From Candidatus Wildermuthbacteria bacterium (GTDB lineage Bacteria; Patescibacteriota; Minisyncoccia; Minisyncoccales; CAVTZN01), in NCBI GenBank assembly GCA_963739285.1, contig CAVTZN010000004.1:31227-95226 (forward strand): 64,000 nucleotides of DNA, written 5' to 3'. This document shows, piece by piece, positions 10,944 to 62,505 of the stretch. Numbering within the stretch: position 1 is the first letter of the stretch; each line of letters opens with the position of its first letter. Below the pieces are notes generated by a model. The model was not told the DNA's origin, ran no database searches, and was given only the letters and a program-made list of their open reading frames with translations. The position numbers and the translations under genes are program-made.

Positions 10944-11018
10944 GCCCCTATAGCTTAACGGATAAAGCGCGACCCTCCGGAGGTTGAAATCTCCGTTCGA
11001 TTCGGAGTAGGGGCACCA
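10944..11018 (+). tRNA. tRNA-Arg (anticodon CCG), CCA encoded
   Basis: Manual cloverleaf: acceptor GCCCCTA/TAGGGGC, D stem GCTT/AAGC, anticodon stem CGACC/GGTTG, loop CTCCGGA, T arm CTCCG-TTCGATT-CGGAG, then ACCA. Confidence 0.9.
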
Positions 11019-22978: not shown

Positions 22979-22985
22979 ATTCTTG

Positions 22986-23333
22986 TGGAGGTGTGGGCAT
23001 TGAAGCCCAATCCGGAAATTTCACCAAAATATTTCTACAGGGATGTCCCGTTTTATATTTGAAATACTAGATTTAAAAACAGGCAAAAATTCTAGTACCA
23101 CTTGTCTCTTTTTTTTCGATAAGTTCGCGAGACAAAAAACCATCTATCTCGATGATATGACACCCTTTTTACCTATCGAGAGTTAGTAAAGAGGATGCTG
23201 CTTTAAGCAAAAGCTAAAGCAGGTTTAGAAAATAAGTTTTTGGCGCTTATTTTGTTGCTAGAAGTTTAATGAGTTTCTAGCATACTCCCCCTGCCTATTT
23301 TGACGAATATTCCCGTCGATTCCTTGCACCCCC
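22986..23333 (-). ncRNA. ssrA: tmRNA (SsrA); predicted tag AKNLFSKPALAFA
   Basis: 5' GGGGGTGCAAGGAATCGACGGGA... pairs with 3' ...CACCTCC-A, including a G3-U wobble. T arm is TGGGC-TTCAAT-GCCCA. Tag ORF GCC...GCT TAA lies at 23244-23203. It is adjacent to smpB. Confidence 0.8.
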
Positions 23334-54911: not shown

Positions 54912-55544
54912 TTTAGCTAATTGAGCGGTTTCAGAGCTGGGTTGATAAAAATTTTTCCAGACAACGACAATGTCAGCGTCGTTAAAAATTGCTCGTTGCA
55001 CTTCTCTCATAGTATCTCCGCCAGCCACAGCAACTAGAACATTATAATTTCCCTTGATCTGTTTTATTTGATAATAAGGAATTTGTTTTTCTTTTGAAAA
55101 TTCGCTTTCGTCAACGCCCCTATGCAATATCACTACATTGGGGAGTTTTTTTAATTTCTTTAAAACCGAAAGAGCGTTTTCAACATTCATCATATCAATC
55201 ATTGAATCAATGTTAAATTTTTGGCACTCCTCTATGAAATTATCAATTGTTTCAATGGGCGCGACTCCAAGACAGGTTGCCGCATTGGCGCCGGCATTAG
55301 CCATCATTTCTACTTCGCGCGCCGCTAAATCCGCGCATTTATTATCGGCAACTATGTAAGTTCCAGCAGGAGCCATTTCTTTTATTTGCGAAATAGCGTC
55401 TGTTCCGTATATTTTTATTAAAGGCGTTCCTGCTTCAATTAAAATTCTATCCGAAATCGGAAGTTGCGAAATAATTTCTCTTGCTTCTTCAAGAGTACTA
55501 TTGAGAGCGATATGAAGATATTTTTTTCGTTTTTCTAAAATCAT
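54888..55544 (-). CDS. 3-hexulose-6-phosphate synthase-like protein (OMP-decarboxylase suprafamily), paralog 1
   Basis: 218 aa intact; IEAGTPLIK, VADNKCAD (DxKxxD), VAGG. It aligns by eye with B. subtilis HxlA. Confidence 0.6.
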   Translation of the reverse strand: MILEKRKKYLHIALNSTLEEAREIISQLPISDRILIEAGTPLIKIYGTDAISQIKEMAPAGTYIVADNKCADLAAREVEMMANAGANAATCLGVAPIETIDNFIEECQKFNIDSMIDMMNVENALSVLKKLKKLPNVVILHRGVDESEFSKEKQIPYYQIKQIKGNYNVLVAVAGGDTMREVQRAIFNDADIVVVWKNFYQPSSETAQLAKSFLKEIK

Positions 55545-55545
55545 A

Positions 55546-56216
55546 TTATTTAATCAATTTCAAAAATTCTTGCGCTAAATTAGCGGTATTTTCCGGCGTT
55601 TCGTAAAAAGAACGCCAGATTACCGCAATATCAGAATCATTGAAAAAAGTTCTGATAACATCGCGCGGCGTTTCTCCACCGGCAACCGATATTAAAATAT
55701 TGCCGTAAGTTCCTTTTATCCGATGAATTTGATCGTGCGGTATTTGTTTTTCCCTGTTTCTTTCGTTTTCATCTACTCCGCGGTGTAAAACAACTATAGT
55801 TGGAAGTTTTTTTAATTTTTGTAAAATTTCAAATGGAAATTCAATATTCATCATATCAATCATTGAATCAATGTTGATTTTCTCGCATTCTTTAATAAAT
55901 TCATTTATGGTTTCAATCGGCGCCAAACCTAAACAAGTGGCCGCAGAAGCGCCGGCTTCGGCAGCTGCTTCAACTTCTCTTGAACCTCTATCCATACATT
56001 TCAAATCAGCGACAATATATCCTGGTTTTTGTATTTTTTCGCTCCACCAATTTTTTAAGTGCGGCAATGCCTTTCTTCCCATATTTTTTGATCAAAGGAG
56101 TTCCGGCTTCAATAATTATTTTTTCTGAAGAAGGCAAGCATAGCAATCATATTTTTTACTTCATTAAGAGAACGGTTGAAAGCAATTTGTAGATATTTTG
56201 ATTTTTGGTTGAGCAT
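55546..56216 (-). CDS. 3-hexulose-6-phosphate synthase-like protein, paralog 2 (N-terminal frame breaks)
   Basis: MLNQKSKYLQIAFNRSL... (from ATG 56216), IEAGTPLIK, VADLKCMD. The C-terminal 178 aa are clearly paralogous to 54888-55544. Confidence 0.6.
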
Positions 56217-56264: not shown

Positions 56265-56347
56265 TGCCGCGGGAGAGAGTCGAACTCTCATGAGATTACT
56301 CTCGCAGGTTTTTGAAACCTGTGCGTCTGCCATTCCGCCACCGCGGC
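56265..56347 (-). tRNA. tRNA-Leu (anticodon CAA), long variable arm, CCA not encoded
   Basis: The minus strand reads GCCGCGG TG GCGG...; anticodon arm CAGGT-TTCAAAA-ACCTG; variable arm GAGAGTAATCTCATGAG; T arm GAGAG-TTCGACT-CTCTC; 3' CCGCGGC-A. Confidence 0.85.
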
Positions 56348-60211: not shown

Positions 60212-61061
60212 AAATATTTCCCCCTAAGTTTCTTACTTTACCTTTTATTTCTAAAATTGCAAGAGTGCTGGCGACGCTGGCAGCTGGTAATTCCGTCTTC
60301 TCAATAATTTTATCAACATATAAAGACTTTTCTTTTAAGGACTCTAAAATTGAAATTTCTTCTTTGTTTCTCCCCTCAGTGAAGCCGGGTGGTCGTAATC
60401 AAAGGCAAATTTAGTTCTCCTAAAATATCATTAGCATTTTCAACCAGCCTTGCCCCTTCTTTAATTAGTTTATGCGGTCCTTTCGAAGTAGACGAATGGA
60501 TTGGGCCGGGAACGGCGAAAATTTTCCTTCCTTGTTTTTTGGCCCACTCAGCAGTAATTAGAGCGCCCGACCTTTCTTTGGCCTCTATTACTAAAACTCC
60601 CAAAGATAAGCCGGAAATAATCCGATTTCTTTGTGGAAAAGTAAAATTAGTTCCCCGTGTTCCTGGCGGATATTCGGAAATTAAACAACCGCCAGTTTCA
60701 ATAATTTTTTCGGTTAATTTTAAATTCGATTGGGGATAAATGCTTTTTTCGTCTAAACCGGTTCCCAAAACCGCAATTGTCCTTTTATTCCTTTCAACCA
60801 CTGCTTGATGGCAAAAGTATCAATTCCCGGCGCTAATCCTGAAACAATAGTTAAACCTGCTTCAGCCAAATCTCCGGCAATTTCCAAAGCCATTTCTTTC
60901 CATGAGCTTGAAAATCTTCTCGTTCCCACAATTGCAAAACAATTTTCCTTACTTTTTATTTCTCCTCGACAGTAAAGGACTTTCGGCGCATTTTTAGTTC
61001 CTTTCAAAAGTTCGGGATATTCTTTTTCGTTTATTGAAATCGTTTTTATTTTTTCAGTCAT
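60192..61061 (-). CDS. dprA: DNA-processing protein DprA (Smf), 2 frame breaks
   Basis: [10 protein letters not shown]..., [22 protein letters not shown]; the C-terminal winged-helix part (...[17 protein letters not shown]...) overlaps the topA start. Confidence 0.8.
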
Positions 61062-61070
61062 TTTTAAACC

Positions 61071-61099
61071 TTGACATTTTAATTAAACTATACTATAAT
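61071..61099 (+). promoter_or_regulatory. Perfect consensus sigma70 promoter (TTGACA-17-TATAAT)
   Basis: TTGACA 61071-61076, exact 17-nt spacer, TATAAT 61094-61099. Confidence 0.65.
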
Positions 61100-61105
61100 A
61101 CAATA

Positions 61106-61339
61106 TTCGGAGGGCTTGATTCTATTTTTACCTTCCAGTCTATCTGCGAGTGGCTTAACCCCGCCCTCTCTTTAGAGAAGGCGGGGGGATGAAATCTAAG
61201 TTATCCCTCCTTAATACTTAGGGCCTTAGGTTATGGATAAAAGTTTCTGCTTTTAATCTATAGCGCTCGCAGGTAGACTGGAGGGCGAAATATCTTAATT
61301 TGGTAGCTCTCCACAAGTAAATAATGAAGGAGAAGTGGA
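61106..61339 (+). ncRNA. Candidate structured leader / cis-regulatory RNA of unknown family upstream of the GGDEF gene
   Basis: 20-bp long-range helix 61131-61150 with 61266-61285 (two U-G wobbles valid only on the + strand); 12-bp hairpin 61159-61186; several SD / anti-SD-like boxes. Confidence 0.45.
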
Positions 61340-61839
61340 ATGATAAAAAGATTTAACGCTGCCTTGATAGCATTTCGTCACCCCGATCTTCTTAATATCA
61401 GAGATCCATTGACAGGGGCTTTGACGCCGAGGGAGTTTAATCGATTGGCCGAACGTCTGGTAAATCGTGCCCGGAAAGGCGGGCAAGTTATTTCCTTGGT
61501 ATTTATTGATGCGGACGGGCTAAAAGAAATCAACGATACCAAGGGACATAAGGCCGGAGATTCTTTTTTAAAGAAGCTCTCTAGGGCCATATCCGCAAAT
61601 ATCCGACCTCTCGATATTTGCACAAGATGGCACGGCGACGGTGGCTGACGAATTTGCCCTACTTTTTCCTGATACAGACTTAGATGGCGCAGAAAAGGTC
61701 GTCAAGCGTATTCAAAAAATCTTCCCAAATTTATACTTGGGGGGCGACTGGATTGGGCGATGAAGGAGATACTATACGATATATGGTGGAAAGAGCAGAG
61801 CAGAAGATGTCTCGGCAAAAAAGAGAAAAAGAGAGGTAA
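61340..61839 (+). CDS. Stand-alone GGDEF-domain protein (diguanylate cyclase-like), 2 frame breaks, one inside the GGDEF motif
   Basis: RDPLTGALTPREF, VFIDADGLKEINDTKGHKAGD, GG-t-DEFALLF (extra T at 61646), G6 run 61739-61744, tail ...YMVERAEQKMSRQKREKER*. Confidence 0.65.
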
Positions 61840-61849
61840 CTAGATTATG

Positions 61850-61889
61850 ACCGGGGATTACAACGTTCAAGTCGTTGCCCCGGTTTTTC
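61850..61889. terminator. Bidirectional terminator between the GGDEF gene and pth
   Basis: ACCGGGG...CCCCGGT outer stem with an inner CAACG-TTCAAGT-CGTTG, followed by T5. Confidence 0.6.
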
Positions 61890-62505
61890 ATTTATTATAT
61901 TTGTTCATCGTTTTTTCCAGTCCTTCTTTTAAAATCGTTTCAACCGCTTCGGCGGATTTTTTTATAACTTCATTAATAATTTTTTCTTCTTCCTTATTAA
62001 AATTTTGAAGGACGAATTTTTCGGGATTTTTAGGTTTCCCTGATTTTGGCAATATTCCGATCCTAAACCTGACAAAATTTTTTGTCCCCAAAGCTTTAAT
62101 TATTGATTCTACGCCTTTGTGGCCGGCTGCTCCGCGGCCGGTTGCTATTTTAATTTTTCCTAAAGGCAGGTCGATATCGTCGTGAACTATAATTATGTTT
62201 TCAGGTTCTAGGTTATAGGTTTTAGTTAGTATTTTGACTGATTTGCCGGAAAGATTCATAAAGGTTTGAGGTTTGGCTAAAATTGTCTCTTTCCCTGAGA
62301 TTTCTCCTTTAGAAATTTGAGCATTGAAAATTTTTTGAAATTTGAAAAGACAAACCAGTCGGCGCTTCCCGCCTCCTTGTAATTGCCCTGCAATTAAGGG
62401 AAATTGAAAATTGGCGGCGATTTCATCGACCGCCCTAAAACCGATATTATGTCGTGTTTTTTCGTATTTTTCCCCGGGATTGCCGAGACCAACAATAAGG
62501 ATCAT
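61888..62505 (-). CDS. pth: Peptidyl-tRNA hydrolase with a GC-rich ~17-codon insertion
   Basis: MILIVGLGNPGEKYEKTRHNIGF..., KPQTFMNLSG, HDDIDLPLGKIK; the insertion LIAGQLQGGGKRRLVCL is encoded at about 62349-62398. Confidence 0.88.
   Translation of the reverse strand: MILIVGLGNPGEKYEKTRHNIGFRAVDEIAANFQFPLIAGQLQGGGKRRLVCLFKFQKIFNAQISKGEISGKETILAKPQTFMNLSGKSVKILTKTYNLEPENIIIVHDDIDLPLGKIKIATGRGAAGHKGVESIIKALGTKNFVRFRIGILPKSGKPKNPEKFVLQNFNKEEEKIINEVIKKSAEAVETILKEGLEKTMNKYNK

Follow-up and report, generated by a model that had tools for sequence, protein, structure and literature searches.

A 64,000-nucleotide stretch of DNA from Candidatus Wildermuthbacteria (GenBank assembly GCA_963739285.1, contig CAVTZN010000004.1, positions 31,227 to 95,226; hereafter 'the window') contains a consensus promoter, a highly structured region and, directly behind these, a gene encoding a GGDEF domain. 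This arrangement raises the question of whether the RNA transcribed from the promoter serves the gene that follows it, or is an element in its own right. A preliminary description of the locus had proposed the former, in the shape of a dedicated leader or riboswitch providing the regulatory input to a GGDEF protein devoid of a sensory domain. Comparison with homologous loci instead indicates, with high confidence, that this is an independent conserved structured RNA that is not specific to GGDEF genes. It was found in a clade of Parcubacteria/Patescibacteria, within the candidate phyla radiation (CPR), where it occupies a single syntenic site; it is tied to this locus and not to the GGDEF gene, which is one of several passengers.

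The promoter is of the sigma-70 type and lies on the + strand, with TTGACA (61071-61076) and TATAAT (61094-61099) separated by a 17-nt spacer. It is the sole 12/12 match to the consensus in the window, where 0.05 such matches would be expected by chance (at least one was found in 5 of 100 shuffled sequences), confirming that it is the best promoter of the 64 kb. Downstream lies the long helix P1, in which 61131-61150 pairs with 61266-61285 through 18 Watson-Crick and two U-G pairs, exactly as had been described; no second copy of a P1 arm was found within the window. The minimum free energy (MFE) of the + strand fold of 61105-61345 is -97.4 kcal/mol (z = -6.08), a value equalled by none of 200 shuffles, whereas the - strand of the RNA region folds less stably (-76.8, z = -5.0). 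Many homologues can lengthen P1 using the equivalents of 61128-30 (UUG/CAA or UUA/UAA), and in the MFE fold of the window the leader sequence GGAGGGCU (61109-16) is able to pair with AGCUCUCC (61305-12). The modelled architecture consists of P1 as a closing helix of 20-23 bp leading into a three-way junction, one arm of which, P2, bears the hairpins P3 and P5, with P6 forming the other arm. The RNA gene is predicted to extend from 61071 to about 61312, with a core of about 155-165 nt and a primary transcript of about 200 nt or more.

The search for homologues began from the GGDEF protein, after repair of its reading frame. Contigs encoding homologues at 43-65% identity were inspected, and two of these (L001 and L002) were found to have the RNA upstream of the gene with obvious compensatory changes. 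A pattern composed of three conserved blocks gave two matches in 185,579 species representatives, one of them Parcubacteria bacterium DG_74_1, and matched 60 metagenomic contigs, four of these by chance. Adding the loci derived from GGDEF homologues and the window itself to the pattern matches gives 63 elements with 39 distinct core sequences. These collection scans were exact-pattern scans, hence the ranges and counts given here hold for such matches only; as the pattern fixed TGCGAG, ATCCCTCCTTA and GGAGGG, the invariance of these blocks in the 63 scan matches carries no meaning. A further four loci (L070, L072, L073 and L075), reached through distant GGDEF homologues, were not selected by the pattern, and the RNA was detected in all four by a covariance model, with scores of 77-148 bits. 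The same model found one copy per locus, no other copy in the window and no further copies in about 445 kb of related loci.

Alignment of all 44 sequences with MAFFT, followed by RNAalifold, recovered P1 only, because the lengths of the inner hairpins differ between lineages. This was replaced by a 19-sequence seed annotated by hand, from which the covariance model (R1) was built and all homologues realigned. Five predicted helices, P1, P2, P3, P5 and P6, are supported by both the covariance model and pair counts. Over the 48 distinct sequences, standard pairs are found in 92.9% of cells, and 48 of the 60 pairs show double changes, which is the covariation in relatives that the preliminary description had named as a check on its proposal. 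A covariation score of 0.564 was obtained, compared with 0.210 for shuffles (none of 500 reaching the observed value) and no more than 0.137 for slid controls. P5 is the best-supported helix of the family, with 99.6% of cells paired and all six pairs covarying, its stem variants including CUAAGC/GCUUAG, AAUAGG/CCUAUU, UCUGAC/GUCAGA and UUCCAG/CUGGAA. Double changes are also found in every pair of P3 (13/13, 94.9% of cells paired) and P6 (15/15, 89.8% paired), and all three pairs of P2 covary; in other lineages P2 is 6-7 bp long (GAGCUAC/GUAGCUC, UGACUC/GAGUCA). In P1, counted as 23 pairs including a 3-bp extension, 92.8% of cells are paired and double changes occur in 11 of the pairs. The two main RNA types, A and B, have different sequences at the junction (for example, UUAA/UUA in the former against 0-1 nt/AAAAUC in the latter).

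The strand on which the fold is conserved was assessed from the same alignment. There are 247 G-U cells compared with 81 A-C cells, 33-34 of which stem from one conserved C.A position in P1, and the covariance model scores 77-190 bits on the + strand but 20-60 bits on the reverse strand. Both results imply an RNA read from the + strand, in agreement with the promoter, and thereby uphold the suggestions that the U-G wobbles of the window P1 reflect a constraint on the + strand RNA and that the promoter drives a highly structured transcript. The conserved C.A mismatch is at pair 12 of P1 (61139/61277, a U-A pair in the window) in 34 of 48 homologues, and may represent a recognition or processing mark.

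These comparisons also separate the conserved features of the window from the incidental ones. The GC-rich hairpin with a TTTA loop described previously is present as P3, and the first of two crossing pairings that had been suggested, 61196-200 with 61217-221, forms the core of P5. However, the second, 61201-206 with 61235-240, whilst present in the window, overlaps both P5 and P6 and has just 69% of cells paired, being fully paired in 7 of 48 sequences; as it competes with the well-supported P6, we regard it as unsupported. The boxes resembling Shine-Dalgarno (SD) and anti-SD sequences occur as had been written, but those within P1 (CCTTCC and GGAGGG) are replaced by compensating sequences in L072 (UCUUCUGGUCUACUUACAAG with CUUGCAAGUAGACCAGAAGA, the base being UCUUCU/AGAAGA) and L073 (UUUUUUGAUCUGUUUGCGAG with CUCGUAAAUAGAUCAGAGAA, the base being UUUUUU../..AGAGAA). 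As these boxes covary away, P1 is conserved as a helix rather than as a set of functional boxes, and the alternative folds through which they had been proposed to free or occlude the SD are not conserved.

Synteny was established using tblastn with the window proteins, along with called genes. At the single site, topA, dprA and usually an mfd-like helicase gene (- strand) are followed by the promoter, the RNA and a slot, beyond which lie the convergent pth, lepB and hisS. At 60 of the 63 loci, P1 is preceded at a distance of 14-61 nt by a promoter of the form TTGAC[AT]-N16-18-TA[TAG]AAT. The conserved promoter is missing from L049/L050, which have an A/T-rich repeat (ttaaaaattaaaaattaaaaattaaaaac...) before P1 instead; in L070, the stretch separating the mfd-like gene from the promoter of the RNA includes a perfect palindrome with arms of about 30 bp each (ccccgtagtagaatttgacaggattttt...aaaaatcctgtcaaattctactacgggg, positions 2093-2155).

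The slot is a small hypervariable gene site at a fixed position. It contains a GGDEF gene, soluble or membrane-anchored, at 20 of the 63 loci (10 distinct RNAs) and unrelated small open reading frames (ORFs), several encoding zinc ribbons and none with a Pfam family, at 26 (20 distinct RNAs); at 15 loci (7-8 distinct RNAs) it is empty, with the convergent pth stop codon 9-130 nt after P1, and at the remaining two the contig ends. Two of the loci not selected by the pattern have both a small ORF and a GGDEF gene in the slot. The slot spans 0.1-0.6 kb, and the non-homologous ORFs encode 50-137 aa, several being Cys4 zinc-ribbon-like and some having one transmembrane helix (small-ORF slots are found in L010, L015, L020, L021, L026, L029, L031, L034, L042, L053, L059, L072 and L075). 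The GGDEF genes found in the slot are of at least two architectures and fall into three types, which may have been acquired independently.

The ORF-less RNAs are no less well paired than the rest, with 94.3% of cells paired, despite a mutual identity of 53-61% and up to 23 pairs with double changes; hence the fold is under selection without a downstream gene. It is this retention of the fold, together with the presence of a GGDEF gene behind less than a third of the RNAs, that speaks against a leader dedicated to a sensor-less GGDEF protein. Two further observations point the same way: the RNA is absent upstream of the 60%-identical GGDEF orthologue P0006, which lies in another gene context (L005-L007), and some ORF-less loci appear to have terminators of their own, with a terminator-like hairpin 10-35 nt after P1 in L018/L055 and L025/L061.

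Where the slot is occupied there is no room for a separate promoter, hence its ORFs are presumably expressed by read-through from that of the RNA. Many ORF-bearing loci have a terminator-like hairpin, GAGGGC...GCUCUU, which overlaps P1 by its final 5-7 nt and has AAUAUUUU after it; such U-tract-tailed hairpins overlapping P1 recur in ORF-bearing loci only. The equivalent hairpin in the window, P7, has no U-tract after it. The likely end of the RNA-GGDEF transcript, judged from the sequence, is instead a terminator-like element within the 3' coding end of the convergent pth, which is also found in L008, L013 and L049. Given this position, the RNA or RNA-GGDEF transcript would overlap the 3' end of the pth mRNA in antisense by about 60-85 nt.

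The single unpaired element conserved in all lineages is the loop of P5, UCCCUCCUU(A). UCCCUCCUU is present in all 48 distinct homologues, including the four reached independently of the pattern (in the rest it was fixed by the pattern); in those four it is kept while P1 changes, and L073 retains it despite the insertion of a 28-nt hairpin into the loop. The 3' tail of the 16S rRNA, canonically AUCACCUCCUUA (...GAUCACCUCCUUA), contains the anti-SD region, and the loop motif AUCCCUCCUUA differs from it by the loss of one A, the other 11 of 12 positions being identical; this identity reaches beyond CCUCC on both sides. The SDs of the neighbouring ORFs, UAAGGAGGUGA, imply that the host's own 16S tail is canonical. 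The loop is complementary to UAAGGAGG, and sequences of the type ...GGAGGGAU fit it better than they do the 16S rRNA.

The accessibility of the loop varies between lineages. The purine-rich segment immediately 5' of P5 can pair with the AUCC/CCUCC of the loop, forming either a helix that masks it or the stem P4 of a pseudoknot, and in lineages lacking this segment the loop has an unpaired probability of at least 0.95. P4 (GGAU/AUCC) is found in type A only, with 85% of cells paired and no covariation, and was set aside as uninformative. Pairing of the loop with the GGAGGG of P1 inside the RNA was also rejected, as it is not conserved in L072 and L073.

Taking these observations together, the explanation that we favour for the locus as a whole, with slightly less than even confidence, is that it encodes an independently transcribed small RNA (sRNA) acting through its anti-SD-like loop. 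The RNA has a promoter of its own at almost all loci, its own end is predicted at the ORF-less loci with terminator-like hairpins, and the P5 loop constitutes a conserved single-stranded seed, which is entirely open in certain lineages but partially masked elsewhere. The pairing mechanism itself is put forward a little more tentatively still: the exposed CCUCC would pair with GGAGG-type, SD-like sequences, such that the loop might function in trans as a translational repressor of, or competitor on, mRNAs, and could also act in cis on the passenger ORF. P1 would serve as a structural clamp and probably also as an RNase III-type processing stem that splits the RNA from the downstream message, for which its length of 20-23 bp and its regularity would suit it. 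In some lineages the purine-rich segment may mask the loop or, in type A, alternatively form the H-type pseudoknot, and in some the hairpin overlapping the last bases of P1 may act as a leaky terminator. A cis effect on expression of the GGDEF gene is also possible in the window, where the GGDEF transcript physically begins with the RNA. A more far-reaching version, which we consider unlikely, is that the RNA mimics the ribosomal tail, either as an abundant sRNA competing with the 30S subunit for strong SDs or by titrating a factor or toxin that acts on the 16S 3' end. Were this the case, it would represent an undescribed form of global translation control, or of ribosome protection, specific to the reduced regulatory repertoire of the CPR, with the slot exploiting the promoter of the RNA for accessory genes such as those for diguanylate cyclases.

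Several points weigh against an sRNA that acts through its loop. The invariance of the loop in the 63 scan matches was imposed by the pattern, such that unbiased support comes from the four other loci, and the unpaired probability of the motif is 0.2-0.5 in many lineages (type A and part of type B). Any CCUCC pairs with any SD, and those of the slot ORFs, UAAGGAGGUGA, match the 16S rRNA better than they do the loop, so the complementarity points to no specific target; nor are matches to the extended loop complementarity enriched in the window, the one sequence searched for them. About 70% of the loci (~46/63) have a same-strand ORF with a strong SD 5-55 nt after P1, hence a purely cis role is possible. 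The alignment used for the pair counts was fitted to the structure of the model, although the helices are also visible in independent folds of single sequences. Finally, the organisms are uncultivated, and the targets, transcript ends and expression of the RNA are all predictions.

Comparison with known families places constraints on the alternatives. In a permissive cmscan of 60900-61500 against Rfam 15 (E <= 10), no family matched beyond noise; the best resemblance in the region was to PreQ1-III (RF02680; 21.9 bits, E = 0.048, threshold 63), on the minus strand, and this did not recur in homologues. At the gathering threshold, the whole window has a transfer-messenger RNA (tmRNA) and two tRNAs only, and a permissive search of ten homologous loci (E <= 1) found no recurring family. 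The cyclic di-GMP (c-di-GMP) riboswitches c-di-GMP-I (GEMM-I, RF01051) and c-di-GMP-II (RF01786) were not listed at E <= 10 in the window or E <= 1 in the ten loci. There was likewise no match to 6S RNA (RF00013 and variants), the consensus fold being a three-way junction instead, nor of the RNA region to the small subunit rRNA model, and ARAGORN detected no tRNA-like gene. This agrees with the earlier remark that the RNA was not recognisable as GEMM-I/II, 6S, signal recognition particle (SRP) RNA or RNase P. Nothing similar was found in phage collections, plasmid collections or viral contigs. A miniature inverted-repeat transposable element (MITE) or other repeat, which had been named as a refuting outcome, was considered and rejected, the RNA being present in single copy at a fixed syntenic position with no match in these phage, plasmid and viral-contig sets.

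Of the other explanations, we give most weight to that of a cis-regulatory leader, whether a riboswitch or a protein- or RNA-responsive attenuator. The three-way junction would here act as a sensor, perhaps of c-di-GMP or GTP in view of the frequent GGDEF passengers, and the state of the P1 base would decide between termination at P7 (GAGGGC..GCUCUU plus a U-tract) and read-through into the slot ORF. At about 46 of 63 loci an ORF follows too closely to have a promoter of its own, which is consistent with this, as are the restriction to ORF-bearing loci of the hairpin that shares 5-7 nt with the 3' strand of P1 and precedes a U-rich tract, and the presence in the slot of GGDEF genes of at least two architectures. 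However, a riboswitch should always lie in the 5' untranslated region of the gene it regulates, yet at 15 of 63 loci no ORF on the same strand follows the RNA, which is nonetheless kept with compensatory changes. The passengers are functionally unrelated; the junction nucleotides are unconserved between the two RNA types, conservation being confined to a hairpin loop, although the sequence alone leaves room for a ligand pocket; P1, at 20-23 bp, is far stabler than ligand-gated P1 stems; neither c-di-GMP-I/II nor any other riboswitch model matches; and P7 of the window has no U-tract. We regard a leader as an unlikely account of the family. A little less likely again is a protein-binding decoy, in which the loop would titrate a factor that recognises the 16S 3' tail, candidates being Era (through its KH domain), KsgA/RsmA, bS21/bS1, a 3'-end maturation RNase or a MazF-type toxin cutting UCCUU. 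The near-identity of AUCCCUCCUUA to AUCACCUCCUUA, its extension past CCUCC in both directions, the canonical host tail implied by the slot SDs and the strong, constitutive-type promoter, which would suit a titrating RNA, are all compatible with a decoy. Against it, none of the candidate partners adjoins the RNA, the neighbours of which are mfd-like/dprA/topA and pth, and the equivalent of A1534, which Era contacts in the 16S tail, is missing from the loop.

The remaining explanations assign the RNA no regulatory function of its own, a known one, or none at the RNA level. A passive 5' module for the expression or stability of whichever gene occupies the slot would fit variable passengers lacking their own promoters, and its long terminal helix might impede 5' exonucleases or be an RNase III substrate; but the RNA is under structural selection where the slot is empty, and a stabiliser would not need such strict conservation of a loop, making this improbable. 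A divergent housekeeping RNA (6S, SRP or Y-like) missed by the Rfam models in the CPR is more improbable still. The single copy, strong promoter and long helix between the 5' and 3' ends are reminiscent of such RNAs, and co-transcription with a downstream ORF is also known for the 6S gene of Escherichia coli (ssrS-ygfA). However, no Rfam model matches even at E <= 10, the three-way junction includes neither a 6S-type central bubble nor the motifs of SRP domain IV, and the finding of the strict pattern in just two of 185,579 species representatives suggests a narrow clade. Lastly, the near-perfect 20-bp inverted repeats and the adjoining variable gene might point to an element acting as DNA, for instance a MITE, a site of recombination or a palindrome bound by a protein. 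This can be virtually dismissed: the fixed syntenic site holds the only copy, neither the rest of the 64 kb nor any locus yielding a second, phage, plasmid and viral-contig matches are lacking, the internal hairpins covary as RNA helices with G-U far exceeding A-C cells, and the conserved promoter points into the RNA. The positions of the parts of the RNA locus in the window are listed in Table 1.

Table 1. Positions in the window of the predicted RNA, its promoter and the features downstream of it
Feature	Position	Strand	Remarks
Promoter	61071..61099	+	start site predicted near 61106
Predicted 5' leader before P1	61106..61130	+	poorly conserved (flank comparison)
P1, 5' strand, CCTTCCAGTCTATCTGCGAG	61131..61150	+	
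P2, 5' strand, GGC	61152..61154	+	partner 61223-61225
P3 hairpin	61159..61186	+	GC-rich, TTTA loop; variable sequence, conserved structure
Purine-rich segment, GGAUGAAAU	61187..61195	+	GGAUGGAUU in most type-A relatives; lineage-specific
P5 hairpin	61196..61221	+	stem CUAAGU 61196-201 x ACUUAG 61216-221; 14-nt loop
P5 loop motif, AUCCCUCCUUA	61203..61213	+	
P2, 3' strand, GCC	61223..61225	+	
P6 hairpin	61230..61264	+	variable sequence, conserved structure
P1, 3' strand, CTCGCAGGTAGACTGGAGGG	61266..61285	+	
P7, alternative hairpin	61280..61312	+	GGAGGGC 61280-86 (last bases of P1) x GCUCUCC 61306-12
SD (GAAGGAG, 61326-32) and ATG (61340) of passenger GGDEF gene	61326..61342	+	
GGDEF-domain gene, about 166 aa	61340..61839	+	one of several slot occupants
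Terminator-like element, CCGC-UUCG-GCGG + AU7	61944..61964	+	inside 3' coding end of convergent pth (61888-62505, -)

The passenger in the window encodes a recognisable GGDEF domain (Pfam E = 9e-25), with its frame broken by two frameshifts, one near 61644-46 and the other at a G-run near 61743-48. Three consecutive genes are split in this manner between 58165 and 61839, topA into at least four ORF pieces, dprA into two and the GGDEF gene into three. As topA is essential, the frameshifts are probably indel errors of the assembly rather than signs of pseudogenes, and such errors could also touch a base or two of the RNA. After repair of the frame, the motif of the window protein (about 61630-61660) reads GGDEF; that of its closest homologues, P0001, P0002 and P0006, is degenerate (GSDEF, CSDEF and GCDEF), hence it is uncertain whether the subfamily has cyclase activity. 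Elsewhere in the window, there is a tmRNA gene at 22983-23333 (-, Rfam 124 bits) and the two tRNA genes of the 64 kb are found at 10944-11015 (+) and 56265-56347 (-). A segment of about 310 bp is duplicated at 55045-55358 and 55706-56019, the copies being 661 bp apart and 70-74% identical (repeats D1, D9 and D16); these are probably paralogous genes.

The CPR/Patescibacteria account for a large share of bacterial diversity, with very small genomes and few known regulators, and to our knowledge descriptions of regulatory RNAs from these bacteria are almost lacking. The fixed locus and conserved strong promoter make this class of RNA easy to find, and the invariant loop resembling the mRNA-binding tail of the ribosome provides a testable hypothesis of post-transcriptional control. 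The comparison also corrects the idea that a new riboswitch of the c-di-GMP type serves a GGDEF protein without a sensor, and uncovers a small, variable slot for genes that draw on the promoter of the RNA.

In preceding a GGDEF gene, the window RNA is like the c-di-GMP-I/II riboswitches, which are often found upstream of GGDEF/EAL genes; however, its architecture is different, two thirds of its homologues do not precede a GGDEF gene and a quarter precede nothing. The preQ1-II/III and SAM-II/V riboswitches have anti-SD-like pyrimidines in a loop or pseudoknot near a start site, and the H-type pseudoknot of P4 and P5 is sterically possible in type A, but P4 of the present family does not covary and is lacking in type B, and the RNA also exists without an ORF. 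The 6S RNA of ssrS-ygfA shares the strong promoter, the long helix between the 5' and 3' ends and a co-transcribed downstream ORF that requires processing; the window RNA differs in having a three-way junction, no central bubble or mimic of an open promoter, and no match to the 6S models. The tail of the 16S rRNA (...GAUCACCUCCUUA) is itself a free 3' end following helix 45, whereas here its likeness is closed into the hairpin loop of a small RNA. The RsaE/RoxS-type sRNAs of the Firmicutes are likewise independent genes with their own promoter and terminator and a C-rich, SD-complementary hairpin loop. They share neither sequence nor structural homology with the window RNA, which comes from another phylum, has about twice their length, and possesses a closing helix of 20-23 bp and a three-way junction; their short UCCC box also contrasts with the copying of the whole 16S tail (AUC.CCUCCUUA) seen here. 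A literature search found no description of a CPR/Parcubacteria RNA of this kind. The family, its architecture and its copying of the 16S tail are new, with no match in Rfam 15 or the literature searched, whilst its general kind, an sRNA with a C-rich loop complementary to the SD, has precedents.

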